64,000 nt of DNA from a virus. The DNA lies in IMG/VR virus record IMGVR_UViG_3300035670_000033, positions 32,001-96,000 of that record, one strand, 5' to 3'. Below the pieces are notes generated by a model. That model saw only the letters and a program-made list of their open reading frames with translations. It did not search any database and had not been told where the DNA came from. Of this stretch, positions 43,841-64,000 are shown in pieces. Position numbers and translations under genes: made by a program. The stretch's first letter is position 1. Each line of letters begins with the position of its first letter.

Positions 43841-44368
43841 ATGAGTAATATACCTACAAATACTAAAGAAAGCGAACATATGGAAACATCACTAATAGCC
43901 ATACCAACCGTCAGGAACCTACAAGAGGCACGAATCCAATGCCTTGAATATGACGCCGTGATCACCGCAGGACCGTTCAAGGACGAAGTGCGTGACTTCA
44001 ACCACCCCGTACATAAAGTGGTTGAATTCAGGGACACCATATTTGAAAGTAACGGCGGACCGACATTTGACGATGTTGTTGAACTAGTTGAATTCGGCGC
44101 TGGCGTCCCAAAACTGTTGGTTCACTGTCATGCAGGAATTTCACGCTCTACGGCTACAGCATGGGGCGTTGCAATAGCAAACGGCTTTGATCCACTTGAA
44201 GCATTTTTGACTTTACAAAAAAATCATCCCATTGAAAAAAGTTTCTACCGTGGTGCCCGACGCACTTTTGCGCCAAACACACTGATGGTTAAACATTTGG
44301 ATAAGTACTTCAATCTTGGTACAACCCTGTCAGAAATACGCGGCAACCATGTAGAAATGGGCTGGTAA
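43841..44368 (+). CDS. Protein tyrosine/dual-specificity phosphatase
   Basis: CX5R P-loop LLVHCHAGISRSTATA; FAPN. Confidence 0.88.
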   Translation: MSNIPTNTKESEHMETSLIAIPTVRNLQEARIQCLEYDAVITAGPFKDEVRDFNHPVHKVVEFRDTIFESNGGPTFDDVVELVEFGAGVPKLLVHCHAGISRSTATAWGVAIANGFDPLEAFLTLQKNHPIEKSFYRGARRTFAPNTLMVKHLDKYFNLGTTLSEIRGNHVEMGW

Positions 44369-44371
44369 TTC

Positions 44372-47317: not shown

Positions 47318-47725
47318 TTATTTTGTTTCCTTTTTGAACTCTGCCCAAGTTTTATCCCCAACGCCATAATACTCTCTGGCGTTTCCTGACTGGATCATGT
47401 CAATATTTAGGCACGCTGTTTGAGGGTCTTCAATTTTGTCTGATGAGTAAATTCTTGCCAGAACACGACCATATTTGTCGTTCTTGTCGGGAATCGTGTT
47501 AACGAAAACCCATTTGTGGTTAGTCATCCAATCTTCAACAAACTTTTTTGCTTTTAGACCTAACTCTTTTTCTTTAAGATCTTTTGTTCGTGATTCAGGT
47601 GTGTTGACTCCATATAAACGAACACGGATTTTGTGATGCACGCTGAAACCTAAATCAACCATCAGGTCTACCGTGTCACCGTCAACTACTTTCAGGATTG
47701 TTGCACCATACCAAAATCTTTCCAC
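47318..47725 (-). CDS. Thermonuclease (SNase-like)
   Basis: KVVDGDTVD, RVRLYGVNTPES, DKYGRVLA. Confidence 0.9.
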   Translation of the reverse strand: MERFWYGATILKVVDGDTVDLMVDLGFSVHHKIRVRLYGVNTPESRTKDLKEKELGLKAKKFVEDWMTNHKWVFVNTIPDKNDKYGRVLARIYSSDKIEDPQTACLNIDMIQSGNAREYYGVGDKTWAEFKKETK

Positions 47726-47727
47726 GG

Positions 47728-48489
47728 CTAATCCTTGTCCTTAGAGTTCTTATATCGTTCAAGCATTCGTTTGCCTTTAGCGGCTAATTCCCTAGCATCA
47801 TCCGCATTCTGTGGAACTGGTTCACCCCAAGCCGCCGCTGAAAGAGCAAGCCGAGTTGGGCGACCCTTTTCATCTTTCATAGGACCAGAAGGATTGGTGA
47901 AGAACCGTGTAAGAAATGATCCCTTACGACGCATCTTTTCTGGTGTGTCAGCAGGACCCTTGACACCCGGCTTCAAATTGGATCCATCTGTTCTGTTGAA
48001 ATGCGCACGACCCGCTGCGGTTAAACCACCTTTAGGGTCTCTCAGTGGTTTGGCAGATTTCTCTTTGACGATCGGACCACCAGCAACCCACGCACGGCAA
48101 GTCCTTTTTGATGCACATTTGAAATCAAATGCTTCGCAATATCCAAGTTCGCCAGCGCTATCAATTGCTTCCCACTCATCCTGACGATCCCCGCCAGTTA
48201 CACCTTTATTGATGCAGTCTTTCATTGAGGGTGTTTGAATGAAAAGTGAACAGTTACCGCACAATTGTTTTTTAGCGGAAGCATTATCAACGTCCCACTC
48301 TTTTGCTAACTTCCCCCAATACTCTGTGTTTGGTTCAGAAGGGTTGAGCGGACCATACATTGCTGTCTTTATCGCTTTTCCTCTGTTGGCAAGGTTTACG
48401 GCAATGTCCTGTGTGGCTTTAGGGCAAGATTCTTCTGCCTTGACACGGATAGAAATCGGTTGACCGTTGATTAAATCGGTAAATTTCAT
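47728..48489 (-). CDS. Modular head-region protein with DUF6321-like C-terminal domain
   Basis: KSAKPLRDPKGGLTAAGRAHFNRTDGSNLKPGV...RRKGSFL.RF. Confidence 0.7.
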   Translation of the reverse strand: MKFTDLINGQPISIRVKAEESCPKATQDIAVNLANRGKAIKTAMYGPLNPSEPNTEYWGKLAKEWDVDNASAKKQLCGNCSLFIQTPSMKDCINKGVTGGDRQDEWEAIDSAGELGYCEAFDFKCASKRTCRAWVAGGPIVKEKSAKPLRDPKGGLTAAGRAHFNRTDGSNLKPGVKGPADTPEKMRRKGSFLTRFFTNPSGPMKDEKGRPTRLALSAAAWGEPVPQNADDARELAAKGKRMLERYKNSKDKD

Positions 48490-48513: not shown

Positions 48514-48555
48514 CAAAAACCCCGCCCCAACCTTTCGGCTAGAGCGGGGTTTTTG
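48514..48555 (-). terminator. Intrinsic terminator after the capsid gene
   Basis: CAAAAACCCCGC...GCGGGGTTTTTG. Confidence 0.85.
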
Positions 48556-48570
48556 TTAATTACTTAATGA

Positions 48571-49884
48571 TTAGGCTGATGGAGCCGCATCAAAACTTAC
48601 CTTCACGAACGACTCTGGTCGCTTCACAGCGAGAGCGAGGCGTTGCTCGGCAAGGATCACAATTGCGTTACGCACGAAGAAGTCTGCGTGCTGTTCGCTA
48701 ATGCGGATGCTTGGTGATTCACGGTCGTAGATTTGTGCTCCCGTACCGAATGCACCGATAAGTGCTGTACCTTCAGCAATTGCAGGGGTGTCCACAACTG
48801 GGATCCTCCACAACTTCTGCTCGCCACCCATTGCAACAGAGACTGCTACGACATAAGCGCCGTTGCCGTCCTTGCTGAGTTCAATGTCTTCCCAATCGTT
48901 CGGGTTAAGAACGATACCCGATGGCTCGTAGTAAGCCAAGAAGGAAAGGGTTGCGGCACGACGGATTGCGTCAGCCTTGGTGTCGCTCATACCAGCAGTT
49001 GCTGAGTACACGCCATCCGACCAGTTGTAGGTCTGTACGCCTGAGGTATTCAAGATACCTGTCAGGTTTTCGCCAGTTCCCGAACCGTTAAGGATTTGTG
49101 CATCTTCCTGCAAGCGGAGACCGTACATCAACTCGTTGTCAATGATTGAGCGCAGTTGTGGCTCATCAGCAAGAACATTGCGGTGTGCGGCTTCCCAGTG
49201 AGCCAAGGTGCGAACAGGAGCCTGCTCACCAACGAAGGTGAAAGACGACTGTGGCTTGGCACCGAATGCGGAACCCGAACGCTCAGCAACTGCTGCTGCG
49301 TTGTTGGTGAATCCCGTCATGCGGAAGTATTCAATGATCGCAGCAGTTGTGGTGCGACTTGGGAACAAGTCACGAACACGCTTGGTGCGCATTGGAGGGA
49401 TGACGATTGCATCGCGTTGAATGGTTCCAAACGAGCCAGGTGTACCAGTTGGGAGTGCCGAGTACAAGTCCTTCTGACTGTACACTTCGCTACCCGACTT
49501 GTATGGTGCTGGCATGTTTGCTGAACCGCTAGCCAAAAGGGACTTGAACTCTGCTGAAGCAAGGAATGCTTCACCGATGCTCTTGCGACCCATTGACTGA
49601 ACTACTTGCTGGATTTCCTGTGAAGCGTAAGCAGAAGCCTGTGCTACTGAATCCTGTGGCTCTGAAGCCCACTTGTCAGCATCACGCATTGACTCAAGGC
49701 TCTCAACGAGCGACTTGATCTCGCGGATATCTGCCATGTTCTTGTCAAACGCGGTCTTTTGTTCTGCGGATACGACTACGGTGCCGTCTTCAATTTTGAA
49801 GTTGTCGGCGATTGTCTTGTTTTCTGCCATCTTGGCGCGCATTGCACCTTGAAGTTCAGTTAAACGGCTGTTGTCAAATGACAT
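48571..49884 (-). CDS. Major capsid protein, HK97 fold
   Basis: Coiled-coil delta domain; E...KPQS, L.G.GTG..L.GIL, A...RPESF; ATG at 49884 with AGGAG RBS. Confidence 0.93.
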   Translation of the reverse strand: MSFDNSRLTELQGAMRAKMAENKTIADNFKIEDGTVVVSAEQKTAFDKNMADIREIKSLVESLESMRDADKWASEPQDSVAQASAYASQEIQQVVQSMGRKSIGEAFLASAEFKSLLASGSANMPAPYKSGSEVYSQKDLYSALPTGTPGSFGTIQRDAIVIPPMRTKRVRDLFPSRTTTAAIIEYFRMTGFTNNAAAVAERSGSAFGAKPQSSFTFVGEQAPVRTLAHWEAAHRNVLADEPQLRSIIDNELMYGLRLQEDAQILNGSGTGENLTGILNTSGVQTYNWSDGVYSATAGMSDTKADAIRRAATLSFLAYYEPSGIVLNPNDWEDIELSKDGNGAYVVAVSVAMGGEQKLWRIPVVDTPAIAEGTALIGAFGTGAQIYDRESPSIRISEQHADFFVRNAIVILAEQRLALAVKRPESFVKVSFDAAPSA

Positions 49885-50036
49885 GTTTTTCACTCCTAGT
49901 GAATTGGATTTGGTTGGTGATTACTTATGTTTCTTTATTGCAGACTTCGGTAAGCACCTAGTCCAGTTACTATTACTGTAATACGAGAATAACATCAAAG
50001 TAGTATTAGAAATGCAACCCCATATTTAACACTTGG

Positions 50037-51443
50037 CTATTTTGAACGGTATCTTTTAACCGCCTGTGGACAGCATCCGCCAGCGTATTTAATACCGTAT
50101 TCCCCTTCATCAAAACCAGCCCATTTTTTGGCTGTTTTACGGTTTTTCCATGGGTGGTCAATAGGCAAAAGATCATTATCTTCCGAATATTTTACATCTT
50201 TGGGTTTTTCCGAGTTCAGCAAAGACAGGAACTTTGAGACCCGCTTATTCGCTTCTTCCCGACCGCCGTCAGCAAAACCTCTAACGAACACAACCTTAAG
50301 GTCGCGAAGGTTGGTTTTGGCAGAAGTTTTTGCTTTAGCATTATTTTTGCGCACCATAACAGCGAGATTATTGATGTCTGTGCTTGTCACGGTTGGAGGC
50401 TTTTTCTTTGGCTTGGGTACACCTTTGTAAAAAAATATTCCGTCGTCCAGTACATCTTTTTGCGATCTTTTAGCCCCACGCGCAAGCATCACATCTCTCA
50501 CATTTAGTTCCTCTGGAGTAACTACGTAAGGAAGTTTCTCTGCGCGACCTACTTCGTTAATGTGTTGTTGTACTTCCTTGGGTGAAAGTTTATATTTGCG
50601 CGATGCGCGAAGGTATGCGAATTTTTGAATTCTGCGCATTTTTTTGGCGTATTCCTTGTCATCTTTGCTGAGACCTGAAGTTTTTACGATCTCATCAATT
50701 GATGATTTCCAATAATTCTTGACATCTTTTGCCTTGTCGTAATCTATTCGTGTTACAGAACGAGGTGCATTCGCTTCACGAGATGGGCTCTTGGGTGCAT
50801 TTTGCCTTCTTCTCCGAACCATTTCTGCTTGATGTTCAGCAAAACTAAGGCGCTGTTTCTTCGGCTTGTTTGCTTTTGGTTTTGGCACTTTTGCTACAGG
50901 AATATTATCTTCGCCATCTGCACCCGTAGCGAAACCATCTCCGTCTCCGTCTTCAAGAGCACCCATCCCACCGATCGGTTTGAACATTCTTCTATAACCA
51001 CTGATTGAACGACCAAGCGCTTTTTCGTCCATTTCTGACTTCTTCTTAAACCCTGAACCTTGGCGTCGCGGATTATTTATCGGACTGTTATCCCCGCGGA
51101 TACCTGTGACACGGTTGTAATCAGAAACATTTGTACAAGGAAGCCAAACAAGTTTTCCATCGCGTGCCGTGTAACGGCGAATACCTATACATCCAAGGTT
51201 GCGTGCACGAATACGGGCAGACTCGGGGTCACTGAAAGTATCAGGATCTGTGGAACGGCTAACAAAGTTAACGAAACCCTTTTCTTCTACAGGTTTCTCT
51301 AAAGTCTGCTTTTTATTCATGCCTTTGATGTACTCAGCAGGATTTTGATTTTTCACTATTGTAAAGTAATAAAAATCAGCCTTCTCATCAGGCGACAAGG
51401 TTTGTACGAGAATGGCTAATTCTCTTGATTCGGTAGGTGTCAT
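50037..51443 (-). CDS. Modular head-region protein (DUF3721-like, DGDGDG tag, DUF5824-like C-terminus)
   Basis: ARNLGC.G...WLPC; DGDGDGFATGADGEDNIP; LKVVFVRG...RV..FL...DNDLLP.DHP. Confidence 0.75.
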   Translation of the reverse strand: MTPTESRELAILVQTLSPDEKADFYYFTIVKNQNPAEYIKGMNKKQTLEKPVEEKGFVNFVSRSTDPDTFSDPESARIRARNLGCIGIRRYTARDGKLVWLPCTNVSDYNRVTGIRGDNSPINNPRRQGSGFKKKSEMDEKALGRSISGYRRMFKPIGGMGALEDGDGDGFATGADGEDNIPVAKVPKPKANKPKKQRLSFAEHQAEMVRRRRQNAPKSPSREANAPRSVTRIDYDKAKDVKNYWKSSIDEIVKTSGLSKDDKEYAKKMRRIQKFAYLRASRKYKLSPKEVQQHINEVGRAEKLPYVVTPEELNVRDVMLARGAKRSQKDVLDDGIFFYKGVPKPKKKPPTVTSTDINNLAVMVRKNNAKAKTSAKTNLRDLKVVFVRGFADGGREEANKRVSKFLSLLNSEKPKDVKYSEDNDLLPIDHPWKNRKTAKKWAGFDEGEYGIKYAGGCCPQAVKRYRSK

Positions 51444-52678
51444 ATGGTTTCCACAAATCCTTCTTCAACGGCGAGCATTGACCTATCCCATACAACAAAA
51501 AAATTGTCTTTAGTTAGAGCAGCCCTATGACCCTTAGCCGCGAAGAGACGACCAATATCGTCGTCTCCACCGAACTCACTTTTTCTACCGCTGTATCTCG
51601 CCTCAATCATTTCATCAAATTCTGATCTCTCTGTAACGGTGTTCGGGGGAATTGCCACCCTCATCACCGTTCCTTGCATCGCATTATTAATATAGGCGTA
51701 TTGTCTAGCGGTTCTAAGGTCATCCGTAAAATAGATTCCATTAGCCTGATGACCCATACCCGCCCAGTAGTCACCTTCCATAAACTGTTTTGCCAACTGT
51801 TCAGATGTTGACAATCTATTATCAGGGGTGCCAGGTAAATCGGCGTTAAAAACATCCTTAATGCCTCGGTAAGCAATCGTCCAACCCTCTTGTTCCAACT
51901 GTTTCATTTTTTCAGACGAGACAACTTTTGGCTTGCCCGTAAAACCCTGTTTTTCCGCAATTATTTCAAGTTGGACATCTCCATATTGCTTTCCAGCAAG
52001 TTTGTATTCATTCGTTCGCTTTTTTATTTCTTTGTCGCCCTCTGATCTAACTTCAATAAAACCCCTATAGTTTCCAAAGTAAACTTTCAAATCGTCCGTA
52101 ATGTCCTTGGCTCGCTTAAGTATTTTTTTAGTAGGGGCAGGAATATTGTCTTCTCCGTCAGGACCAGTAGTGAACCCGTCGCTATCGCCGTCAAACTCTG
52201 CTACACCACCAATAGGGCGACCTAAAGACTTGCCAGAAAACGAGCCAGTTACAAGCCCACCACCCGGCAAGGTTGCGATGCCAGTAATAGGTTTCTCGTC
52301 AAGGTTCTCCCAACCCCGTTTAGGTGCCTTGTGGTTGCAAACCGCATAATACTTTTTCCCTGCAAGCAGAACAGTTCGTACACCACCACAACCACGAGCC
52401 TTAGAAATAGCAACAGCATCAGCACGATTCTCATAATATGCATCAGACTTTGTTTCTAAACGCTTGGTGCGTTGAACCATTTTCGGCAAAGGTTTTTTAT
52501 TATTTGAAGCACGAACTTTTAAATACTCTTCTTTACCCTTTTTGATTCCCTCATATTCTTCGTGTGAGGCGCAAGGCATCCAACCAGCATCGGTCTCATG
52601 GGCTCCCTGACATCCAAGCATGCGGGCAACACGAAGCGCCTGATCCCTAGTGGTTTTATTCTTTTCGTCTTCAGACAT
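51440..52678 (-). CDS. Modular protein with two DUF3721-like repeats, DGDSDG tag and C-terminal ADP-ribosyltransferase-like domain
   Basis: ARMLGCQGAH...WMPC; AYRG ... G.GHQANGIYFT..L.TA.QYA...G.VMR. Confidence 0.7.
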   Translation of the reverse strand: MSEDEKNKTTRDQALRVARMLGCQGAHETDAGWMPCASHEEYEGIKKGKEEYLKVRASNNKKPLPKMVQRTKRLETKSDAYYENRADAVAISKARGCGGVRTVLLAGKKYYAVCNHKAPKRGWENLDEKPITGIATLPGGGLVTGSFSGKSLGRPIGGVAEFDGDSDGFTTGPDGEDNIPAPTKKILKRAKDITDDLKVYFGNYRGFIEVRSEGDKEIKKRTNEYKLAGKQYGDVQLEIIAEKQGFTGKPKVVSSEKMKQLEQEGWTIAYRGIKDVFNADLPGTPDNRLSTSEQLAKQFMEGDYWAGMGHQANGIYFTDDLRTARQYAYINNAMQGTVMRVAIPPNTVTERSEFDEMIEARYSGRKSEFGGDDDIGRLFAAKGHRAALTKDNFFVVWDRSMLAVEEGFVETI

Positions 52679-52941
52679 TATTGTTTTTCTTTTTTAGATA
52701 CTTTTTCAACCTCTGAAGCATATTCCATAGACATCGCGTACTGATCAAATAGTTCATCTATTTTGTCTGCATTCTCTTTGTTCATCAGATACGAGACCAT
52801 TGACTCAAGGTCACCATCTTTGCCATTTTCATTTGCATACCCGTAGGCAATGGCAATAATTTTAGAACGTGTCTCAGGGTTCTTTACTGTCGTTAGCAGT
52901 TGATTTTTGATTGAGTTTTTTTGTTCTGTTGTAAGTTTCAT
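52678..52941 (-). CDS. Small protein coupled downstream of the 1048-aa gene (putative immunity/partner)
   Basis: Translationally coupled. Confidence 0.7.
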   Translation of the reverse strand: MKLTTEQKNSIKNQLLTTVKNPETRSKIIAIAYGYANENGKDGDLESMVSYLMNKENADKIDELFDQYAMSMEYASEVEKVSKKEKQ

Positions 52942-55900
52942 TACGCCAACCTCGGTGGTTCCACCCGTATTCTAGGGCGAGCAATTTTTGGTTTCTTAGG
53001 GAGTTTCTGACCAATTTTTTGTTCAGCAAAAGATAGCGTTCCACCACCAAATCCAAGATTTGCTTTAAACCATTGTTTCACATATTCCATTTTTTCCCTG
53101 TCGCCAGTAGGATCATCCAAAGCAAAGATTATGTCTTGATGCTGATACTGCTTACCACCTCGCGCCTGTGCGAGAATTGATTTAATTCTCGCATATTCTG
53201 CGTCATTGTTTATCAATCCGCCAGCACCAAAATCCTCATAAAATTTGAGAGGTGACTGAAGCACCTGTAGGTCTCTGTCTGCCAAGCCATAGTTTCTTTT
53301 GAATCCAACACGAGCCCAAACATATTGTCCATCATCGGCTGCGTTCACCATCGCCTTTGTGACACCTATTTGCTTCAGGTAAAGAAACGCGTGCTGGTTA
53401 TAAATTGTTTGAATATCAGCGCCTCTATCTATTTTGCTTGTCACAAACATTGAATTTTGGCTTACCGTACCCTGCGATACGCTTACACTCCGAGACGATT
53501 TAGCGATTGCTGCTCTTATAACTTCACCGTTTGCGTTGATCTCGTCAAACGTAACCGAAATCTGAAACCCATTTTGAGGAGACACTGTTGCGGTAGCACG
53601 GTAAAGTTTCCCGTTCTTGCCTTCAATTCTTTGGTGGGAATAAGCCTGTTTCAAGTACTCTGCCTTTTGCGGAGCAGTGAGTCTTCCCCATTTTACGGGT
53701 GTCATGTCTTCATATGGTGCACCACCGTTTGGGTGCCGTTGCTTAAGATACTTAGCAAGTTTCCCTTGACGACGTTCAATCGCCTCGTTCACCTGATCAT
53801 TGATCTTCTTCGCTACATCTTCTGGAAGCGGTCTAGGAATATTTGTTGCATCTGGATTGAAAACAAAACCTTGTTTCCTTCTTTCTGATGCTTTCCGTAT
53901 TTCTGGTCCTAATGCTTCTATCAACTGAAGATGACCTTCATATTTGCCAATATCAGACTGTAATTGAGCAATTTTTTTCATTGTCTCAACACGGTTGAAT
54001 TCTTTTGCTTCTGGAGTATTTCCAATAGGTGAACGCATAAGTCTGAATTCTGCGCTTAGTTGTGTTTCTAATTCGGTAAGTTTGGTTCGCACACCCGCGA
54101 CACCACCTTGTGGTCTTACGTATCCGATATATTTTCTTTTTGCCTCGGTGACTAAAGCCGATACATCGGCATCGGGGTTTGCTCGGAGCAAATCAGCAAC
54201 TCTTGAAAGTTCTTTTTGAAAGTTCCGCACCGCTAGTTGGCGACCTTCATTTTGGTTGAACAATGCTTGATCGGCTAGTAATCCAAGTTGTCCCAAAAGT
54301 TTTGGATCTTGCATTTGAAGCAATACTTCTTCAATCAGATCTTCATTTTCTTTTTTGAATTTGGCTGCTTCCATCTTTGGTGGAACATGCTTCAGTTCGT
54401 CTGGAACATCTCGGATATCGCGTGGCGATGGGGTGTCAACACTATTAGCGATCGGAGCGTCAACTGGAGGTTCTCCAGTACGGTTGGCGTCATAGATTTC
54501 CTGCCATGCGTCCCTGTAGTCTTTAATATATGTTTTAATGCGGGCAATATTTATTTCCTCGTCTTGCCTTCGTTCAATGAAGTCATTGTCAGAAAGTTCA
54601 CCTCTAGCAATCGCTTGCTCTATACGCGCTATCCTTGCATCCGCTGCAACTATTTTTTGTGCGGCTTCAACCAATTTCTGTCCGCGTCCAGCGCCAATGG
54701 GTGGGAAGTTGGCGGGGTCATTGATGATCATTATCCTGTCATTTGGCATGACATCATTTAAAACATAACCTTCAAAGTCTCTATCGTTAAGAACTTCATT
54801 CAGGTTAACCCTTTGTCCTGCACCACGCGCTCTATCCGCTCTGGCTTGGCGCATTCTTTCCGAGTTGGCAGCGTTGTCACTGTTGCCGGGTTGTGGGCGA
54901 GCGGGAGATGCCTCTGGTTTTGGTTTTCTGCGTTTAGGTCCTGCTACGGCACGACGCTCTTCCGATTCGGCATCAAGTAGTGCACCAATATCGTTCCTGT
55001 CGGGGTTTGCCCTAGGGCGACGAGGTTTAACTACTTTTGGCTCAACAACTGAGCGTGGAGGCTGAAGACGCCTTACCTCTTCTTCCAACTTAACTATTTT
55101 TTCTCGTTGACGCCTGATTGCTTGTGGCGCCGCACTATTCTGTCGCATCATCTGCAACATGTCTCGTGCTTCGTTAAGATCACGCTCTGCTACTGCGAGC
55201 GGATCGGTCTCATTTGCTCGGCGTGTTGGTGCTTTAGGTTTCTTTGTTGCTTCAACTACGGCACGACGGCGACGGCGAGCAGGCGCTTCACCAGTTCTTG
55301 GTGCACCCGGCTGTTCAATTTCGCGTTGCATTCTTCTTTGTTCTGATTCACGAAGATTTCCTTCACCTCGTGGTCTTGCAGGTTGACGTCTGCGAGCAGG
55401 GCGTGCAGGAGCATTGCGTCGTCTTAGTTCCGCCATTACTCGTTTGTAATCGTCGCTGTCTCTTCCGCCAGTAGCGTTCTCTAATTCGTCGCGCATTTCC
55501 TCTAAAACCTCTAGAGGTTCTGCGGCGAGAAGATTTGCTTCGTCACGGGCAGGGCGAGCGGGTGCTTGTCGTCTGCGTTGCGGACGAGGTGCAGGTGTTA
55601 ACTCTCTAGGTGCTTCAGGTGTGTCAACCGACGGTGGTCGTGCAACAACAGTTCGCCTACGAGCGCCACGAGGACTAGGGGCATTCCCGCCATCCAGTCG
55701 CTCAGCAATACCACGTAAACCTTGCTCAAGACGACCAGCACCACCGCCTTGGGGGTTAAGTCTTGCAAGTATTCGGCGTTCACGACGAGCAATACGACGA
55801 CCACGGCGAGCATCATCAACATTTTCCAACCGTTGACCAATATCTGATATTTGATTAGCGATGCGTCGTGCGACCCCCCAACCGCAAGACCGACCAAAAC

Positions 55901-56087
55901 GATCTGTTATCTGTCCACCATACCGTGTCCCCGTTGGACAGCGCCAGCCTCCACGACGGTTAGTGCCGGGGATAGAAAGACTCGGATCCCACATGGCGCG
56001 AACAGCCTTGACTTCATAAGCAATAGTTGACGTGTTCCGTTCGCTAAGAAAAGATTTTGCCTTAAAGTCGGCGATATTCTGAAGCAT
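52941..56087 (-). CDS. Large modular protein: conserved Cys N-domain, Arg/Pro linker, C-terminal GNAT-like domain
   Basis: WDPSLSIPGTNRRGGWRCP.GTRYGGQITDRFGRSCGWG; C-terminal IGV....VNAADDGQYVWARVGF. Confidence 0.75.
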   Translation of the reverse strand: MLQNIADFKAKSFLSERNTSTIAYEVKAVRAMWDPSLSIPGTNRRGGWRCPTGTRYGGQITDRFGRSCGWGVARRIANQISDIGQRLENVDDARRGRRIARRERRILARLNPQGGGAGRLEQGLRGIAERLDGGNAPSPRGARRRTVVARPPSVDTPEAPRELTPAPRPQRRRQAPARPARDEANLLAAEPLEVLEEMRDELENATGGRDSDDYKRVMAELRRRNAPARPARRRQPARPRGEGNLRESEQRRMQREIEQPGAPRTGEAPARRRRRAVVEATKKPKAPTRRANETDPLAVAERDLNEARDMLQMMRQNSAAPQAIRRQREKIVKLEEEVRRLQPPRSVVEPKVVKPRRPRANPDRNDIGALLDAESEERRAVAGPKRRKPKPEASPARPQPGNSDNAANSERMRQARADRARGAGQRVNLNEVLNDRDFEGYVLNDVMPNDRIMIINDPANFPPIGAGRGQKLVEAAQKIVAADARIARIEQAIARGELSDNDFIERRQDEEINIARIKTYIKDYRDAWQEIYDANRTGEPPVDAPIANSVDTPSPRDIRDVPDELKHVPPKMEAAKFKKENEDLIEEVLLQMQDPKLLGQLGLLADQALFNQNEGRQLAVRNFQKELSRVADLLRANPDADVSALVTEAKRKYIGYVRPQGGVAGVRTKLTELETQLSAEFRLMRSPIGNTPEAKEFNRVETMKKIAQLQSDIGKYEGHLQLIEALGPEIRKASERRKQGFVFNPDATNIPRPLPEDVAKKINDQVNEAIERRQGKLAKYLKQRHPNGGAPYEDMTPVKWGRLTAPQKAEYLKQAYSHQRIEGKNGKLYRATATVSPQNGFQISVTFDEINANGEVIRAAIAKSSRSVSVSQGTVSQNSMFVTSKIDRGADIQTIYNQHAFLYLKQIGVTKAMVNAADDGQYVWARVGFKRNYGLADRDLQVLQSPLKFYEDFGAGGLINNDAEYARIKSILAQARGGKQYQHQDIIFALDDPTGDREKMEYVKQWFKANLGFGGGTLSFAEQKIGQKLPKKPKIARPRIRVEPPRLA

Positions 56088-56090
56088 GGT

Positions 56091-56408
56091 TTAAGCCTTA
56101 AAACTTTTTTTATTTGGAAGAGACTTAATTTGATTTTTATACATTTCTTCAGTTACTTGCCCATCAGAACTGTATTGTGCGGACATTGAATTAAGACGGT
56201 AAAGAATATATTCCATTCCGCTTCCCTCCAAAGGGATCTCGTTTCGTGCCGACGATTCTGAAAGAATTTCAATAAGTTGATCAACAAGTTCTTTATCGGA
56301 AGCGTGTATTTCTACAAGTCCATCAATATTTTTTCCAGCGCAAGACCCATTTACCTTGTTTGTAAATGGATCCATGAATTGACCTATAAAAAACTCTCTC
56401 ATGATCAC
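56091..56408 (-). CDS. Small protein coupled downstream of the 959-aa kinase-like gene (putative immunity/partner)
   Basis: Overlaps the upstream stop. Confidence 0.7.
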   Translation of the reverse strand: MIMREFFIGQFMDPFTNKVNGSCAGKNIDGLVEIHASDKELVDQLIEILSESSARNEIPLEGSGMEYILYRLNSMSAQYSSDGQVTEEMYKNQIKSLPNKKSFKA

Positions 56409-59284
56409 CTTTGGTTACTTGGAATTATGTTGACTATCTCATTTTCGGCGTTGCGAAGGTTTGCAAGACTTCGTACCATGCCATCATAAAGTGCTCCTGC
56501 TCGGGCTTTATTTGAGTCAGTCTTACTTACTTTTTGCAATGCGTCTGTTATGAATTGTTCACGACCGACAGCAAGTGTTTTTTCTGTTTGCACAACAACC
56601 TGTCTGTACACTTCTTGAATTCGCGCATAAGTTTCACGCCTTTGCGCGGCTGACATAGCGGGTAGTGCGGTGCGCATAGTGGCAAGAATGTCCGTGTCCA
56701 TACGAAAACCCCGTTGGTAACGATCAAATAGTCCTCCGTGATCCCTTCCAGCCCAACCCAAGTCCATCGGAACGACATGCGCTAATTTCTTGCCGTCTGG
56801 TAATTCCACTACACGACCCATACCGTTGCCTCCGTGGCGGTCGCTAACACCAAGAATATAGTTGGCTAGAACATTAGACAATCTTTCAGGAAGACCTTTA
56901 TCTGGAAGGGCATTCAGGGCTCCTTTGTTGAAATCGTAGCCACCAGCAGCACCGCCGATTACTGCTCCTTCAGGCACGTCGTTGTGTGCCAGAGGGATCA
57001 TGATGTAGGGGGTTCCTTTTCGGACTGTTCCAAGAGGCTTTCGTACATCTGCTTCAAGTTTACCGTCTTGAATTGCTCCGTCTTCCAAGATCCCTACAGC
57101 AGCCAAGTAGTTCCATCCAATGAGTTCGCCGACATTGTCGGCAGGTTTTGCAGCCTTGAAAACCCATCCCTGATTAGTTGGATTTCCATTTTCATCACGC
57201 AAAAAGTAAATTTTAGTTACACCTACAGCGCCACCGTTGGGTTGTACTTTTTTGAAACGCTTATTCGTGTCTCGTGGATCTGATGAAGCGTTTGCTTCTA
57301 TGGCAATGTGCATGAATTTTGCTGGAACCTTTTGTATGTCTCCACCATTTTTTATATGGTCAATCGCTTTTTGTTCCGTGTTAATTGTTCGGTCTTCTTC
57401 TGAAACAAATTTTCCAATTGGAGAATTCCGTCTATCTATCTTTAATTTGCCATGCGCATTTTTGCTTCTAGCAAATTTTCGGAAAGGAGATTTTTTTTGC
57501 TGTTTTGCTTGTTGCGCTTGCGGTGATGGTGGTGTCCTTGGCGTTGGTGGTTCAGGTGGTTCGCTATTTCCGTTGCTTAGATCCAAAAACTGTTGACTAA
57601 AATCGCGTAAGTAACGATTCAGTGACGCTTGACCCTGTGGACCTCGGTACTCTTGTTCTAGCGCGTCACCATCAACGATATTTCTGGCTAGGAAACCACG
57701 AAATTTTCCGCTTTCTTGTGGGAGTAATTCAATTTCCCAGTTTCCTTTTTTCCATCTAGTTGAACCATCAGGTTGGTTAATAGCGTCCCAACCTTCTCCA
57801 CCAAAATCGGGCATTCTTACATTTGCCCGTGCCGGTGCGCCTCCGTCCCCAGGTGTGACAAAACCGCGACCATCTGGTGAGCGTCGCGGTTGGCGTGCAG
57901 GGCGTGCAGGGCGTGCAGGTGCTGGCTCGGGAATATCATTCGCTTGTGGTTTGCGTGATGCGCTACGACCAGCACCCTGTGCTGTTGCTTGCCGACGGCG
58001 ACGACGGCTATTTTGTGGGCGACGATTACGAGGCGCTGGTGGTTCAAAATCTATTGGTGCTGAACGACCGTGTGCATCTTTCCAAGCATCGCGAAGATTA
58101 TTTTTGTTGATCTCGTACCATTCACGGCGAGTCAACATTCCTGCGTTCCCGCCACCTTCGCGAATTTCTCGTACTCGTTTAGCGTATTCACCATATTTTC
58201 GTAATACATACGGTTTGAAATCTTCTGTTTCACCAGCGTCGGAAGCATCTCTTGCGGTGAGAACATCAACATTTGCTGGTTGTGGTGCAACGCGCGGGCG
58301 TGCCTGTGGTCGTGCCTGTGGGCGTCGTTGTCCTGCTGGTGCTGGTCGGCGTGCAGGACGAGGTGTTGGTGCGGGTGTAGGCGCTGTTTCTGGTATTGCG
58401 TCACGACGACGGTTTCTCGGCACTCGTGCTGGTGCCTCAACTTCAGGTGTTTCGTCGTTGCGTCGTCCACCTCTATTGACTCTTCGGTTAATAGCACCCG
58501 CTAAACCTTCATTGTTTACCCTGTCCAACAAATTCCCTCGCCGTGGGGACTCACCTCCCTCAAGGCGATCAGCGATATTCCGCAGACCGCCTTCAACCCG
58601 ACCAGTTTCCGCAACTCCGCCAAGCCTTCTCATCATTCGTGCGTTACGGCGATCAAGACGACGCTTCCGTTTGTCATCATCTCGTTGTTCTAAGCGTTCG
58701 CCAATGTCAGCAATTTGGTTTGCAATTCGTCGCGCAACTCCCCATCCGCACGAACGACCAAAACGATCTGTTATCTGTCCGCCGTATCTTGTGCCTACAG
58801 GGCATCGGAAACCGCCACGGCGGTTAGTGCCGGGGATGGAGAGGCTTGGATCCCAAACTGCACGAACACCTTTGATTTCAAAATGCGCTGACGAACGAGT
58901 TTGGTCAGAAATAAAAGAAGATGCTTTAAAAGTCAAAACATTTTTGAACTCTTCGTTAGAAAACTCAGAAAGCAAAACTTCAGAAATAGATAAAACTGGC
59001 AGGTTTTTGAATTCCATCGGCTCACTTTGAATATGTGCAAGTGAAGCAACTTTTTTCTGAACTGCTGTTCCTGATGGGCTCGGACCTTCAATTATTTTGG
59101 ATGCATCCATTGACTGAACTAGTTCAGGCTTAGTGATTGGGGTGTCGGCGTATTCTTCGCGGAGTATCCCAACAAGTTCCTTTGCATCTTCCGTCATCGG
59201 TTTGAATGTGGATCCCTTGGGGGTCGTTGAAACAACCATAAATGGTGTGTTGTCACGGTTCTTGATAATGAAAACTAGGTTCAT
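56405..59284 (-). CDS. Large modular protein: extra N-domain, conserved Cys domain, C-terminal PI3/4-kinase/HipA-like kinase
   Basis: GWVFK, GELIG, LGVSDRHGGN (56825-56842), VPMDLG. Confidence 0.8.
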   Translation of the reverse strand: MNLVFIIKNRDNTPFMVVSTTPKGSTFKPMTEDAKELVGILREEYADTPITKPELVQSMDASKIIEGPSPSGTAVQKKVASLAHIQSEPMEFKNLPVLSISEVLLSEFSNEEFKNVLTFKASSFISDQTRSSAHFEIKGVRAVWDPSLSIPGTNRRGGFRCPVGTRYGGQITDRFGRSCGWGVARRIANQIADIGERLEQRDDDKRKRRLDRRNARMMRRLGGVAETGRVEGGLRNIADRLEGGESPRRGNLLDRVNNEGLAGAINRRVNRGGRRNDETPEVEAPARVPRNRRRDAIPETAPTPAPTPRPARRPAPAGQRRPQARPQARPRVAPQPANVDVLTARDASDAGETEDFKPYVLRKYGEYAKRVREIREGGGNAGMLTRREWYEINKNNLRDAWKDAHGRSAPIDFEPPAPRNRRPQNSRRRRRQATAQGAGRSASRKPQANDIPEPAPARPARPARQPRRSPDGRGFVTPGDGGAPARANVRMPDFGGEGWDAINQPDGSTRWKKGNWEIELLPQESGKFRGFLARNIVDGDALEQEYRGPQGQASLNRYLRDFSQQFLDLSNGNSEPPEPPTPRTPPSPQAQQAKQQKKSPFRKFARSKNAHGKLKIDRRNSPIGKFVSEEDRTINTEQKAIDHIKNGGDIQKVPAKFMHIAIEANASSDPRDTNKRFKKVQPNGGAVGVTKIYFLRDENGNPTNQGWVFKAAKPADNVGELIGWNYLAAVGILEDGAIQDGKLEADVRKPLGTVRKGTPYIMIPLAHNDVPEGAVIGGAAGGYDFNKGALNALPDKGLPERLSNVLANYILGVSDRHGGNGMGRVVELPDGKKLAHVVPMDLGWAGRDHGGLFDRYQRGFRMDTDILATMRTALPAMSAAQRRETYARIQEVYRQVVVQTEKTLAVGREQFITDALQKVSKTDSNKARAGALYDGMVRSLANLRNAENEIVNIIPSNQR

Positions 59285-59408
59285 TGTTTACTTTCCACAT
59301 TTGTGAAGGCATTGAGCAAGCCCTGTAAGTCTTGCGTCGCAATATCGCTACTGTAAAATGGTATCACTAACGGCAGATATCAAAATTATGACACTGTAAA
59401 CATATTAT

Positions 59409-59702
59409 TTATTTGTCTAATTTTTTGTGCCCTAATTGAATAAGAAAATTATCAATTTTCTCTTTGCTTGAACCCTCGTATTTTAATATTTCTGCATTGA
59501 GGTAAGAGTACCCATGCAACATGTTTTCAAGAGTCGCCATCTTGGGGGAATTCTTCTTCATAGTTAGGAAATGCTCATTATCTCGTTTGTCGTTATCGCG
59601 ATTTTTTGAGTAATAAGTGATAATCCCCTTATCGTCTTCCACCAAAACAATTGGGGAAGCCTGAACCAGTGGATCCTTAGAGGTGATGATTGCCGCTCTC
59701 AT
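59409..59702 (-). CDS. Small protein downstream of the 954-aa kinase-like gene (putative immunity/partner)
   Basis: Starts 5 nt after the upstream stop. Confidence 0.7.
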   Translation of the reverse strand: MRAAIITSKDPLVQASPIVLVEDDKGIITYYSKNRDNDKRDNEHFLTMKKNSPKMATLENMLHGYSYLNAEILKYEGSSKEKIDNFLIQLGHKKLDK

Positions 59703-59707
59703 GATAT

Positions 59708-62572
59708 TTACAATCCTAATAGCAAGTCGGCGATCCTTGATGGATCAACATCGGTCAAATATTTCATTTTCTTTTGTGGTCTTTCGCCAATTCTGACAAC
59801 AGCCTGATCTCCAGCCCTTGGATTCGGTGTTCCATCTCCGCCTGTTTTTAGAACATCATTAACCATATTCAAATATGGGTTTTTTCTTTCGGCTTCGCGA
59901 ATAGATTTCTGCACATCGGCAACCGCGGCTATTACCTCACGCCTACTCAGTCTCCCCTGTCTAACCTGTTCGCGAAGAGTTGAAAGCATGTCGTTTCGTC
60001 CACCACCGTAACTATCTCGTAGCCACCCTACAAAACCAGCGTCGTCGCCATCAAATGCTTCAAATGCTCTACCTCCCCAGTTGACATCAAAACCAAGAGA
60101 TGGGTCAATTGGAACAAATCGGAGTTTCCCGTTCGCGTCTGGCGCAACAAAAAAGTTACCACCGTGACGATCTCTATTAACAATTACAAAGTCCATTAAT
60201 GTCGCACGAACACGATCAGACGGCTTTATGTCGCCCATATTCGCAACGTCTCTTCCCAATCGCAGTCTTCCTTCAACATAGTTTCCTGCGTGTTCGTAAA
60301 CTATTGCGCGACCACCGCTATGTGGTACACCATTCCCGCCTTTTTGTTTGCCGTCTAGTCGCAAACCACCAACGGGCATGCCGAAACGACCTGCGAGATT
60401 ATTGCCGACCATTTCGTGAATATCTTCGTTTTCCGCCTGTGCACCAGCCTGATATTTAAGGAAATACTGTTTCCCTGTTACGGAATCCGTAAACATGTGC
60501 ATGTTGTCAGGGATCATTCCGTTAACTCCACCACCAGCATCCTGTTTGCTGAATCTATTCGTCGCACCATGTAACGCTTCTCCCAAGAATTCGTCTGGTA
60601 CGTCGGCTAAATCTCCACCTTGTTCTAGGTGAGCGATTGCTTGTCCCTTGGTGTCAATTCCTTTATTTCCCACAGGAACGCTTTTCACGTCAGGGAGACC
60701 ATCTTCTCCTTTGGAATTTAGTTTCTCTGGTGCGTGATCTTGCTTCGCTGAAGGTGGAGAAACATCCCAACCTCCTTCGGGCTCTGGTATTTCCGCTGGT
60801 CTATCAGGTGGGCGGACTGGAGGTTGTACTCGTGGGGCATTAGGGGCTTCAACATTGTTGTTGGCAACAACAGGAGGTCTTTGCCTGAAGGCAATATCCG
60901 CCTCAATTTCAACAGCCCTTAATTCAGCAGCGGCAACATTCTCTTTAATTTTTTCTTTTTGCGCCCATGATCGCAATAAATTCTCTCGGGCTTCATCTCT
61001 TTCTCTTTGATTTCCGTTTTTCTTAGAACGCCAGTCGTCGTATGCTTTATCAAAACCAGTTTGTGCCTGTTTCAAAAGGTCTTGATATTCATTTTTTTTG
61101 CCTAAAACTTGTTCCCTTGACAGGTTGCGCAAATTGTTGTAGGCGTTTGGCTTGTATCTTGCAACTTCATCTTTGACTATTTTGACCAAATCTTTATCTC
61201 CCGGCTGGTCAAACTCTGCATCTGGGTTTATGTCTCTTGCAGGAATCGGTGGTGGACCTGCTGGTCGTGCGGGTGCTTTTGGTGCGGGCGCTGGCGGTGC
61301 AGGCTGTGGCGCTCCTGCCTGTTGTGCAAATATTTGTTGGTTAACAAAATTGCCACGAGCATTACGCTTATTGTTGTCACCGTAATAGCGACCGAACCTT
61401 CTTTCTAGTTCGGCTCTCTCTTCACCTTCAGGGAAATCTGGTTTACGCCAATACGCATCTTCGGGTAGCCCGCGAAGATCACCGAAACGGTTACGAACAT
61501 TGCGAATAGAAGCAGCGTCTGGAACGCTTCCACCCAACTCGTCTGCTGTTGGATTCCATGCGGGTGGATCAGGAATTGGTGTTGATGGTTTCTGTTGTTC
61601 TGGCGGTTTTGGTGCAGGTTTTCTGCGTGGCACCTTCGTCGGTTCGGGTTTAGCACTGTCAACAAAATCTGCTTCAGGCTTTCTTCTTGCTGTTCGTTTC
61701 GCGCCCTGTTGTGCTGCGGCTCGTCGTCGGCGTCGTGGAGCATTCGGTCTTGGTGGTTCACCTGTACGCGGTGCGCCGGGTTCAACTAATTCTCGTTCCA
61801 TTCTTCGTGCTTCAGATTCGCGAAGGTTCCCTTGTCGGCGAGGTGCTTTTTTACCTCTACGATTCAGTTCCGCGTTAACTTTGTCTAGACGTTGCCGTGC
61901 GGTAGATCTTTGAACACTGACAGGGAGCATACCGATTCTTCCGTCATCACGAGGTTTGTCCACTGCGTCTCGCAGAATGTCAACTGCTCGTTGTGCGTCT
62001 TGATACTGTTTTTCTAGATCTTCATCACTCATAGTGCGAAGGTTCTCTACATATGGATCTTTGTCATCTCGTCTCGGAAGTGCGGGAATATCGCGAGTTG
62101 GCATTACTGGACGGGCTGGAGGTTGCGCAGGGATTCTTGGGCGTGCTGTTGGTCGTGCCTGTTGCGGAGCCTGTCCACCCTCAAGTGCTTCTGCAATATT
62201 TCTTGCACCACGCTCAAGAAAACCTGGCTTGTTCTGACGAGCCAACATTCGTTGTACACGAGCATTGCGTCTTGCCAAACGGTCGTTTCGTTTGCGGTCA
62301 TCAATGTTTTCTAAACGCTCACCGATATCTGCGATTTGGTTTGCAATACGACGTGCAACACCCCATCCGCATGAGCGACCAAATCTGTCGGTTATCTGTC
62401 CACCGTAACGGGTGCCAACCGGGCATCGCCATCCTCCGCGACGATTCGTTCCGGGGATAGAAAGACTCGGATCCCAAATCGCTCTAACGCCTTTTACTTC
62501 ATAACTGAAAGTACTGGATGTTTGTTCAGAGAGGAAAGTAAGAGCCTTAAAATTTACTTCGTTTTTGAGCAT
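59708..62572 (-). CDS. Large modular protein: conserved Cys N-domain, Arg/Pro linker, C-terminal PI3/4-kinase/HipA-like kinase
   Basis: YFLK, HEMVG, DFVIVNRDRHGGNFF (DRHGGN 60155-60172), PIDPSLG. Confidence 0.8.
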   Translation of the reverse strand: MLKNEVNFKALTFLSEQTSSTFSYEVKGVRAIWDPSLSIPGTNRRGGWRCPVGTRYGGQITDRFGRSCGWGVARRIANQIADIGERLENIDDRKRNDRLARRNARVQRMLARQNKPGFLERGARNIAEALEGGQAPQQARPTARPRIPAQPPARPVMPTRDIPALPRRDDKDPYVENLRTMSDEDLEKQYQDAQRAVDILRDAVDKPRDDGRIGMLPVSVQRSTARQRLDKVNAELNRRGKKAPRRQGNLRESEARRMERELVEPGAPRTGEPPRPNAPRRRRRAAAQQGAKRTARRKPEADFVDSAKPEPTKVPRRKPAPKPPEQQKPSTPIPDPPAWNPTADELGGSVPDAASIRNVRNRFGDLRGLPEDAYWRKPDFPEGEERAELERRFGRYYGDNNKRNARGNFVNQQIFAQQAGAPQPAPPAPAPKAPARPAGPPPIPARDINPDAEFDQPGDKDLVKIVKDEVARYKPNAYNNLRNLSREQVLGKKNEYQDLLKQAQTGFDKAYDDWRSKKNGNQRERDEARENLLRSWAQKEKIKENVAAAELRAVEIEADIAFRQRPPVVANNNVEAPNAPRVQPPVRPPDRPAEIPEPEGGWDVSPPSAKQDHAPEKLNSKGEDGLPDVKSVPVGNKGIDTKGQAIAHLEQGGDLADVPDEFLGEALHGATNRFSKQDAGGGVNGMIPDNMHMFTDSVTGKQYFLKYQAGAQAENEDIHEMVGNNLAGRFGMPVGGLRLDGKQKGGNGVPHSGGRAIVYEHAGNYVEGRLRLGRDVANMGDIKPSDRVRATLMDFVIVNRDRHGGNFFVAPDANGKLRFVPIDPSLGFDVNWGGRAFEAFDGDDAGFVGWLRDSYGGGRNDMLSTLREQVRQGRLSRREVIAAVADVQKSIREAERKNPYLNMVNDVLKTGGDGTPNPRAGDQAVVRIGERPQKKMKYLTDVDPSRIADLLLGL

Positions 62573-64000
62573 TTACGATTTCTTTCGCTCTTTCGCGAGG
62601 TCGGGTTTGATGAATGTTTCGTAAAGCCAGCGCGGAGCCTTTCGCTTGACACCATCAGTACCAGTGTATTCAACAAGTTGAAGTGCATCTGGAATCTCAC
62701 CACTGTCAACATTGAATTTGAATGCGCCTTCTGACGCGTTAGCAAAATCTTCAATATTTTTTATGATGTTGTCTTTGTTGCTTGACTCGGCAAGAGAGTT
62801 AATCATTCGCGGAAACTTTCGCTTCTCACCGATAGTGAAAGGACGTGATCGTTCAATACTGATGCTCACACCGTTGGGCGCAACGAAAGCAATTTTACTC
62901 ATTGAAGGACCACCCAATAGCGCTAGGTCATCAGCACCTATGTCAGATGGAAGTTGAACTGCGCGAACCATTGCACCGTCAACCATGTCAGGGTTCTCAC
63001 TGAAGGAACGCAAAACCGATGATGGAACTACAGGGCGAAGAACCACTCCATCTCTGCGGATCATTCGTCCTTCGCCTCGTGGAGCACCCTTCAAAAGACT
63101 CACCGCATCCGACACAGACTTGCCGAACCTATCTTTTTGGAAAGCACCTGTTCTTGGTATTTGCGCCATGCGTTGAATCTGTATGGTGCGCGTATTGCTT
63201 GGATTTCCTTCTAATACTTCAGAAAGGTTTTCTGCTCGTGCTTGTGGAAGTCGTGTGGTTGCCCCTCGTACCGCGCGAGCGGCTAGTGCGAGTGGTCCTG
63301 GTATTTCAAACAGTTGCGCACCACAGGTTGAAAAACGGTTGTCCGTGAATCGTCCACCATATTCAAAACCAGCAGGGCATCGTGCTTGACGCTTGCGATT
63401 GGGCTTTAGTCTACTTAACGCTCCACCGCCCCCACCGGGTACGAGTGCACCATAAACTCGTGAACGGATAGGTGATGTAAGTGGTGAAATGTTCCCCGGC
63501 GTTAGTGCAGAACCAACGGCTTGTGCCGCTCTGCCTGCCGTGCTTCCAGAACCTATAAGTCCTGCTTTCGTTTCCATGTCCTCTGCATCGTCTTTGCCGA
63601 CACGGTATCCACCACCACGTTTTTTATATTCACGAACAAGCCAAGCATTAGCGTAAGCAGATGGGTATACATTGAATTTCTTTTTTGCTTCTGCTTTGAC
63701 CCGTGCATAAAGTTCAGGGTCTGTGGGGATATTTTCGCTCTTGAATTCTTCTCCATCGGACTTAAATGTGGAGACATTGATCGGCTTGTTTTCTTCCCGA
63801 TCTCCTGTTGTTTCTGCTCGTCGTTTTCTGCGTACCGCTGAATCAATTTCTTCCGCAGACATTTTCATGGCGGTAGATTTCTTTACACACTTAGGGTATT
63901 TACCTGAATCTGCGTCCCCGCGACCGCAAGGTTCAAAACCGCCACCTTTTTTAGGGCGTGAAATGTCAACCCATTCTTCTTCAAACCATTTGCCCAAACC
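62573..64000 (-). CDS. Partial (5' end outside window) modular head-region protein with DUF5872-like modules and a divergent RCP-G-YGG-TD-CG motif
   Basis: KWFEEEWVDI...CGR...YPKC; TDPELYARVK.EAK..F.VYPSAYANAWLVREYKKRGGGY; RCPAGFEYGGRFTDNRFSTCG. Confidence 0.75.
   Translation of the reverse strand, partial: GLGKWFEEEWVDISRPKKGGGFEPCGRGDADSGKYPKCVKKSTAMKMSAEEIDSAVRRKRRAETTGDREENKPINVSTFKSDGEEFKSENIPTDPELYARVKAEAKKKFNVYPSAYANAWLVREYKKRGGGYRVGKDDAEDMETKAGLIGSGSTAGRAAQAVGSALTPGNISPLTSPIRSRVYGALVPGGGGGALSRLKPNRKRQARCPAGFEYGGRFTDNRFSTCGAQLFEIPGPLALAARAVRGATTRLPQARAENLSEVLEGNPSNTRTIQIQRMAQIPRTGAFQKDRFGKSVSDAVSLLKGAPRGEGRMIRRDGVVLRPVVPSSVLRSFSENPDMVDGAMVRAVQLPSDIGADDLALLGGPSMSKIAFVAPNGVSISIERSRPFTIGEKRKFPRMINSLAESSNKDNIIKNIEDFANASEGAFKFNVDSGEIPDALQLVEYTGTDGVKRKAPRWLYETFIKPDLAKERKKS

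Follow-up and report, generated by a model that had tools for sequence, protein, structure and literature searches.

What do three large tandem genes, alike at the N-terminus and different at the C-terminus, do in the head operon of a phage? The question is raised by a stretch of 64,000 nucleotides (the window; bases 32001-96000 of the single 138,071-bp virus record IMGVR_UViG_3300035670_000033), in which such genes encode proteins of 954, 959 and 1048 amino acids (aa), referred to here as W954, W959 and W1048. Each gene is followed by a short open reading frame (ORF), named s97, s105 or s87 after the length of its product. The original prediction took the genes for a virion-packaged array of effectors. 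Based on the analysis described below, we give an even chance to the reading that the array encodes capsid-loaded, injected enzymes with cognate active-site blockers. Packaging into virions is what we infer from the genes. The array comprises the following features:

59708..62572, minus strand: W954 (954 aa), with the N-domain at 62168-62572 (Cys-loop at 62369-62428), an Arg/Pro-rich basic linker and a C-terminal PI3/PI4-kinase-like domain at 59711-60655
59409..59702, minus strand: s97 (97 aa), starting 5 nt after the W954 stop and predicted to lie over the catalytic cleft of the kinase
56405..59284, minus strand: W959 (959 aa), with a conserved 105-aa N-terminal extension, the N-domain at 58550-58972, a linker and a PI3/PI4-kinase-like domain of another subtype at 56408-57367
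56091..56408, minus strand: s105 (105 aa), overlapping the W959 stop by 4 nt, a sequence family of its own
52941..56087, minus strand: W1048 (1048 aa), with the N-domain at 55683-56087, a linker, a helical middle part and a C-terminal GNAT-like domain at 52944-53801
52678..52941, minus strand: s87 (87 aa), overlapping the W1048 stop, of a family found only after the GNAT-like type

The shared N-terminal region spans approximately 135 aa and has 60+ invariant columns in a three-way alignment of W954, W959 and W1048. This alignment confirmed the nearly identical block of about 80 aa first noticed in the three genes, and the coordinates given for it were right within one codon (the cores of the block end at 55824, 58688 and 62309). 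Within a core of 62 aa the three paralogs are 90-97% identical in protein and 76-78% identical in DNA, and only ~40% of the synonymous codons are the same. Because the protein is nearly identical while the synonymous codons have diverged to this extent, the paralogs are old and kept by purifying selection. The divergence at synonymous sites excludes both recent duplication and gene conversion as the origin of the block identity. The core is also near-invariant in 43 non-redundant copies of the N-domain from IMG/VR loci.

The most conspicuous part of the domain is a 20-aa Cys-loop. Its motif, RCPxG-x(5,6)-[IF]TD-x5-C, has exactly five occurrences when the 138-kb genome is translated in six frames; all fall in five consecutive head-operon genes, and 200 shuffles gave no match. 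Besides the three paralogs, the carriers are a 571-aa gene (p571) and a 562-aa DUF3626 gene, which are otherwise unrelated to them and to each other:

62573..64000, continuing past the window to 64288, minus strand: p571 (571 aa), with DUF5872 and phrog_23735 modules and a diverged Cys-loop at 63320-63382
64614-66302 in window numbering (beyond its end; L001:2614-4302), minus strand: 562-aa DUF3626 gene (SopF-family ADP-ribosyltransferase-like), with a fifth, diverged Cys-loop at residues 71-90
64417-64617 in window numbering (beyond its end; L001:2417-2617), minus strand: 66-aa ORF, overlapping the stop of the DUF3626 gene by 4 nt

The diverged fourth copy that had been suspected at 63320-63382 is thus real; it corresponds to residues 303-323 of p571 and was recovered both by BLASTP (48% identity over 27 aa, E = 7e-6) and by the hidden Markov model of the family (E = 8e-4). 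The loop is retained in 36/36 and 43/44 orthologues of the two outer genes. A short element that is common to otherwise unrelated, neighbouring proteins looks like an address tag or a common docking site.

No known family could be assigned to the N-domain. Searches of Pfam (E ≤ 0.1), PHROGs (0.01) and NCBIfam (0.01) returned none, phmmer found no match in the PDB, and Foldseek against the PDB gave nothing below E = 3.9. The only matches in BFVD were three uncharacterised proteins of the same family. A VIA wide search (best Z = 5.0) matched long helices only, and the ESM Atlas contained no usable match. The structure model of the domain (predicted local distance difference test, pLDDT, 73; predicted template-modelling score, pTM, 0.35; middling confidence) comprises a helix, a small hairpin, the Cys-bracketed loop and a long Arg-rich helix. 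The earlier impression that this is not a MuF domain is in line with these searches. The MuF domain of the phage (PF04233, residues 640-729) forms the C-terminus of its portal protein (70294-72504 in window numbering, L001:8294-10504, minus strand); it is a portal fusion, and there is no separate MuF gene.

The N-domain is followed by linkers of 400-500 aa. As originally described they are rich in Arg (12-17%) and Pro (10-14%); they are basic (isoelectric point 9.8-11.2), histone-like and probably extended. Their sequence is poorly conserved except for one short motif, NLR[DE]SE.RRM.RE[IL]..PGAPR, located in the region 55341-55280 in W1048 and 61830-61770 in W954. It was found in 27 of 153 family representatives at a distance of 100-310 aa from the Cys-loop and, as far as the sequence can tell, may be a docking or processing site.

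Linkers of this kind would also suit internal head proteins with a mainly structural role, in which the Arg-rich segments neutralise or organise the packaged DNA or act as a scaffold and the enzyme tips are secondary. The basic composition agrees with this idea, as do the highly variable length of the linkers (family proteins reach 4528 aa without further Pfam domains), a match to the histone H1-like family HC2 in one member (P0247), and a capsid protein that has its own delta domain in a genome with no separate scaffold gene. The poor conservation of the linker sequence does not. Moreover, the catalytic residues are invariant over deep divergence and a dedicated, predicted active-site binder stands beside each enzyme (see below), which speaks for the enzyme as a selected function. 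We consider a mainly structural role very unlikely.

The C-terminal domains of W954 and W959 both carry the motif DRHGGN and a downstream Asp. The catalytic residues are K706, E720, D801-R802-H803, N806 and D823 in W954, and K710, E720, D815-R816-H817, N820 and D841 in W959. We aligned 37 kinase domains of the family, which outside of close orthologues are mostly 16-41% identical. The sole invariant columns are K82 (the ATP-binding Lys), E96 (the Glu of the N-lobe helix), D177, R178, H179, N182 and D199 (the metal-binding Asp). With 14.1 and 13.8 bits the two kinases from the window stay below the gathering cut-off of PF00454 (PI3_PI4_kinase; 27.1 bits), whereas their homologues P0021 (32.4 bits) and P0044 (39.9 bits) exceed it. 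A profile search of the PDB matched Fam20 (best), PI4KB, PI3K-alpha, mTOR and DNA-PKcs at the catalytic loop; matches to the Pfam families CotH and HipA were weak. Judged by these residues, it is very likely that the domains belong to the PI3/PI4-kinase-like group and are active as kinases. A literature search found no published phage kinase of this group. Phosphatidylinositol is a membrane lipid of Actinobacteria, the likely hosts of the phage (see below), so that a lipid substrate is conceivable.

For W1048, the last 286 aa were modeled with a pLDDT of 85.7 and a pTM of 0.81. All top structural matches of this model are GNATs (Foldseek: E = 2.5e-4, probability 1.0; VIA: Z = 7.7, a middling value, with a root-mean-square deviation of 3.3-4.6 Å for 112-141 aligned residues). 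Those from VIA include NatD, GCN5 and the toxins AtaT and TacT. The model thus indicates the α/β-fold of GNATs. The domain had neither a Pfam match nor a PDB match by profile-versus-sequence search, and the Atlas features provided only a weak acetyltransferase lead. Taken together, catalytic residues, PDB profile matches and fold searches support the C-termini first read as kinase, kinase and GNAT-like.

A small gene after each large one had been part of the original prediction as well. The three ORFs of 87, 105 and 97 aa follow their large genes at a spacing of -4 to +5 nt, and within the IMG/VR loci a 60-130 aa ORF lies -30 to +60 nt downstream of 74 out of 79 complete family genes. Control genes rarely have one (protease 0/40, capsid 0/18, portal 3/28, 571-aa gene 3/43), and p571 in the window has none. 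Orthologues of the DUF3626 gene precede a small ORF in 20 of 25 cases. Each enzyme gene is translationally coupled to a small cognate gene. The small ORFs fall into at least six families, one of them restricted to the GNAT-like type. Since hhalign gave probabilities below 10% between the six families, we treat them as unrelated or diverged beyond recognition. They follow the enzyme rather than the N-domain: the nearest relative by kinase sequence carries the same small-ORF family in 38/40 cases, compared with 20/40 for the nearest relative by N-domain.

We modeled the complex of one pair, the kinase domain of W954 with s97, using our own shallow alignments. The complex scored 0.80, the best control 0.00; of 80 solved complexes 58 attained this mark, compared with 2 of 110 mismatched pairs. 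At least 82% of the contacts agree between runs, and the pLDDT of the partner is at least 85. In the model, s97 contacts the Gly-rich loop, K706, D801, H803-N806 and I822-D823, i.e. the catalytic cleft. Binding at this position fits an inhibitor or a pseudo-substrate. Together with the co-variation of small ORF and enzyme subtype, the predicted contact argues for the partner role that had been proposed for the small proteins.

The modeled position of s97 in the substrate cleft is also what one would expect of a substrate, and it bears on a different explanation: the array may encode late pairs of enzyme and regulator that are not packaged. They would work in the producing cell, where virion or host proteins might, for instance, be phosphorylated or acetylated in the course of assembly. 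The small proteins would then be regulators or substrates, and the N-domain would tether the enzymes to an assembly intermediate. CotH and Fam20 kinases phosphorylate structural proteins, and the best PDB profile match is a Fam20-type kinase, accompanied by the weak match to CotH; the location of the genes within the late head operon is in agreement with such a role, too. It is less obvious why assembly should need three paralogs with such long basic linkers, or an exchange of cassettes between close relatives. In addition, the neighbouring genes carry domains of the effector type (the SopF-like DUF3626, a weak ART-PolyVal match and a staphylococcal nuclease). We regard unpackaged late enzymes as unlikely, if somewhat less so than a mainly structural role.

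How far does this arrangement extend? A profile of the 135-aa domain retrieved 261 clusters at 50% identity from 1.84 billion proteins, with protein lengths from 87 to 4528 aa. The domain is always located near the N-terminus. We tabulated the C-termini of 153 representatives: 82 are kinases, 48 are GNAT-like, 12 are fragments and a handful are of other types, among them P0234, which ends in DUF3626. More than one enzyme class does follow the same N-domain, as the proposed interchangeable C-termini require, but the range is narrower than in polymorphic toxins. Going by the sequences, the C-terminal variety is limited to kinase, GNAT-like and, rarely, ADP-ribosyltransferase-like domains, and the diversity lies in the kinase subtypes and their partners. 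The kinase groups are mutually only 16-30% identical, and even in close relatives whose N-domain is 100% identical to that of W954 the kinase can be too diverged for tblastn at 1e-5. The arrays differ among phages as well, with one to three family genes in varying order of subtypes. A reading of the long members as proteins of many domains was dropped, because no further Pfam domains are present in members of up to 4528 aa. The longest, P0190, is followed by an ORF of 108 aa.

The linkage of the homologues to head genes held throughout. In all 53 IMG/VR loci the order of protease, 571-aa gene, one to three family genes, 412/468-aa genes and capsid gene is kept. The distant member P0221 (2370 aa), which has a different C-terminus, is encoded between the capsid gene and a portal-MuF/S78 pair and is followed by two small ORFs and then by a gene with a Zeta_toxin domain. 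On that contig (17854-18927) the gene for this kinase-fold toxin fills the slot between family gene and capsid gene.

In the phage studied here, the genes on the minus strand are arranged in the order portal-MuF, S78 prohead protease (709 aa, with a long extension), an acidic 493-aa protein, the 562-aa and 571-aa genes, W954 with its 97-aa ORF, W959 with its 105-aa ORF, W1048 with its 87-aa ORF, a 412-aa gene, a 468-aa gene and the HK97-fold capsid gene. Intergenic spacing within the array ranges from a 4-nt overlap to 5 nt, save one gap of 124 nt. The end of the operon contains the following features:

51440..52678, minus strand: 412-aa gene with DUF3721 at the N-terminus, a DGDSDG tag and, at the C-terminus, a weak ART-PolyVal match below the threshold
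50037..51443, minus strand: 468-aa basic gene, carrying a DGDGDG..EDNIP tag like that of the 412-aa gene
48571..49893, minus strand: HK97-fold major capsid protein, encoded by the final gene of the transcription unit
48514-48555, minus strand: strong hairpin with a 19-bp stem, resembling an intrinsic terminator, directly 3' of the capsid gene

No comparable terminator was found upstream within the array, so that the array belongs to the transcription unit of the capsid gene. The genes had been placed just upstream of the capsid operon; they share its transcription unit, but the 412- and 468-aa genes lie between array and capsid gene. A scan for sigma-70-like promoters found fewer sites than in shuffled sequences and was uninformative, and a tRNA scan of the window found none.

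The two tags in the list are part of a longer element, PIGG..DGD[GS]DG..T..[DE]DN[IV]P, which occurs in three otherwise unrelated minus-strand genes around the capsid gene (46147-46965, 272 aa; 50037-51443, 468 aa; 51440-52678, 412 aa) and is absent from the rest of the genome. Similar to a Ca-binding DxDxDG loop, it may represent a second tag. Directly 3' of the capsid terminator, at 47318-47725 and 47728-48489 on the minus strand, the window contains a homologue of staphylococcal nuclease (135 aa) and a DUF6321 protein (253 aa); in some relatives the protease gene contains an inserted DUF6321 segment. On the plus strand, an adjacent gene pair at 43841-45319 encodes a sequence with a CX5R phosphatase-like motif (HCHAGISRS) and a deacetylase-like sequence.

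The genome of this uncultured lake phage is ~97% complete as estimated by CheckV. It contains two WhiB-family genes (PF02467; 54.7 and 56.7 bits) at genome positions 30857-31048 and 66421-66615, the latter corresponding to 34421-34615 of the window, which point to an actinobacterial host. Neither a tyrosine integrase (PF00589) nor a large serine recombinase (PF07508) was found in it. The nearest relatives of its capsid protein, with ~46% identity, are those of Gordonia myoviruses of the genus Bendigovirus. Because of the whiB genes, the missing integrase and recombinase and the Bendigovirus-like capsid protein, we consider it most likely a virulent phage of freshwater Actinobacteria. Cultured Bendigovirus relatives have an RNA ligase, a VIP2-like ADP-ribosyltransferase and a 971-aa unknown protein between portal and capsid. 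When the N-domain, the kinase domain and the GNAT-like domain were compared by tblastn with 50,697 records of cultured phages, nothing was found, and no relative of the family was present in 185,579 prokaryote genomes. One family member is annotated as a hypothetical protein of an "uncultured Caudovirales phage". So far, the family is confined to uncultured phages of freshwater Actinobacteria.

These results also bear on the possibility that the enzymes are toxins aimed outside the infected cell, either in competition between bacteria, as for MuF toxins, or against protist grazers, as a "Trojan horse" whose phosphoinositide-type kinases and SopF-like ADP-ribosyltransferase would act on the phagosome of the predator. 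A toxin with a small downstream ORF is the architecture of polymorphic toxins (PMC5576092), PI3/PI4-kinase-like and SopF-like domains (DUF3626; PMC6682159) are typical of effectors that act on eukaryotes, and ADP-ribosyltransferases of freshwater actinophages have been proposed to act in this way (PMC6802176). The phage, however, has no integrase, and the absence of prophage copies from the prokaryote genomes leaves no lysogen to benefit, which weakens the role in competition considered in the original prediction. There is no secretion signal or export system nearby. Finally, a cognate active-site blocker suggests that the enzyme is harmful or mistimed in a bacterial cell, unlike an enzyme directed purely at eukaryotes. 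Toxins for use outside the infected cell are, in our estimate, about as improbable as a mainly structural role.

For capsid-loaded enzymes that are injected with the DNA, the following mechanism can be proposed. The shared N-domain, or its Cys-loop, would serve as an address that recruits the proteins into the procapsid via the portal-MuF protein, the protease or the capsid interior. The basic linker would lie along the packaged DNA. Late in infection the small protein would act as an inhibitor that, as in the model of s97, blocks the active site and silences the newly made enzyme in the producing cell, so that the enzyme would act only after delivery to a fresh cell without inhibitor. As the next infection begins, the proteins would come out of the head together with the DNA and modify targets in the host. 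Between related phages, enzyme domain and inhibitor would be swapped as one cassette behind the constant N-domain.

Several points weigh against this mechanism. Any late protein could be encoded at such a position in a late operon. The loci all belong to a single phage clade, and their conserved synteny amounts to few independent observations. No cultured phage carries the family, and its proteins are putative constituents of virions. The model of the N-domain is of middling confidence and has no match to a known capsid- or portal-binding fold. The GNAT-like domain is without a clear Q/RxxGxG/A acetyl-CoA loop, the corresponding stretch being DRGADIQ. Tight linkage by itself would make enzyme and small ORF co-vary, and the score of the complex is a model confidence obtained from shallow alignments.

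Among known systems, MuF toxins are the closest in layout. They have immunity ORFs downstream, and a small ORF accompanies 89% of MuF toxin genes (PMC5576092). The present family resembles them in its location in the head module, its conserved N-terminal domain, its variable enzymatic or toxic C-terminus and a small ORF of less than 150 aa downstream (94% here). In contrast to MuF toxins, the N-domain matches neither PF04233 nor PF06152, and PF04233 is found at the C-terminus of the portal instead. The array is not adjacent to the portal gene but separated from it by the protease and the 493-, 562- and 571-aa genes. With PF00589 and PF07508 absent and no prophage copies, the carrier is most likely not temperate. 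Further differences are the restriction to two main C-terminal types, the up to three tandem paralogs and the linkers of several hundred residues. The putative effector system is thus distinct from MuF toxins, as the original prediction held.

T4 Alt undergoes packaging and injection, as polyvalent proteins presumably do, and modifies host proteins at the onset of infection (PMC5512222). Polyvalent proteins, like the family described here, are large, are encoded in portal-terminase elements and inferred to be packaged and injected, include kinases, GNATs and ADP-ribosyltransferases, and show cassette-like variability of the kinase-bearing members (PMC5512222). The array differs in having one recognisable enzyme per protein instead of 2-15 domains, the valency being spread over several genes. 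Its kinases are of the PI3/PI4 type and do not belong to the truncated clade of Ser/Thr/Tyr kinases, and the N-domain is not among the domains that we found described for polyvalent proteins (PMC5512222). With T4 Alt and IPI-III it shares the principle of enzymes or basic proteins that have an N-terminal element in common; the T4 proteins are loaded into the prohead and injected with the DNA, as the proteins described here may be. There is no sequence relation, and the element is the 20-aa Cys-loop within the 135-aa domain, compared with a T4 tag of ~10 aa that is cleaved by the prohead protease. We know of no cognate inhibitors of Alt. A kinase-fold enzyme with a small adjacent protein is also seen in zeta-epsilon and HipA-HipB: epsilon blocks the nucleotide site of zeta, and HipA shares the PI3/PI4-kinase-like fold. 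Here, however, the kinase is the tip of a protein of ~950 aa from the head operon of a virulent phage and not part of a chromosomal or plasmid addiction module, and the antidote-like gene is located downstream, not upstream. We file the system as a variant of head-associated effector-immunity systems.

As a tentative proposal, which we rate slightly below an even chance, the Cys-loop N-domain would be a new capsid-loading address for up to five head enzymes (two kinase subtypes, a GNAT-like enzyme, a SopF-like ADP-ribosyltransferase and one unknown), each of them plugged until injection. With a similar, somewhat less than even probability, such an inhibitor-gated, cassette-swappable set of injected enzymes would differ from MuF toxins, T4 Alt and polyvalent proteins alike. 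How the first minutes of an infection go is decided by virion proteins that are injected, and to our knowledge these comprise only few classes, namely MuF toxins, the N4 RNA polymerase, P1 Dar, and T4 Alt with the internal proteins. Freshwater Actinobacteria are among the most abundant freshwater bacteria (PMC6802176), and the family provides a sequence-defined set from their phages, consisting of a 20-aa tag on five head-operon proteins, PI3/PI4-kinase-like kinases and predicted active-site plugs. Should the tag prove to serve in loading, it would offer a new way of directing cargo into HK97-type capsids, and the pairs of kinase and plug, if they are what the model suggests, would constitute a new set of specific kinase inhibitors.

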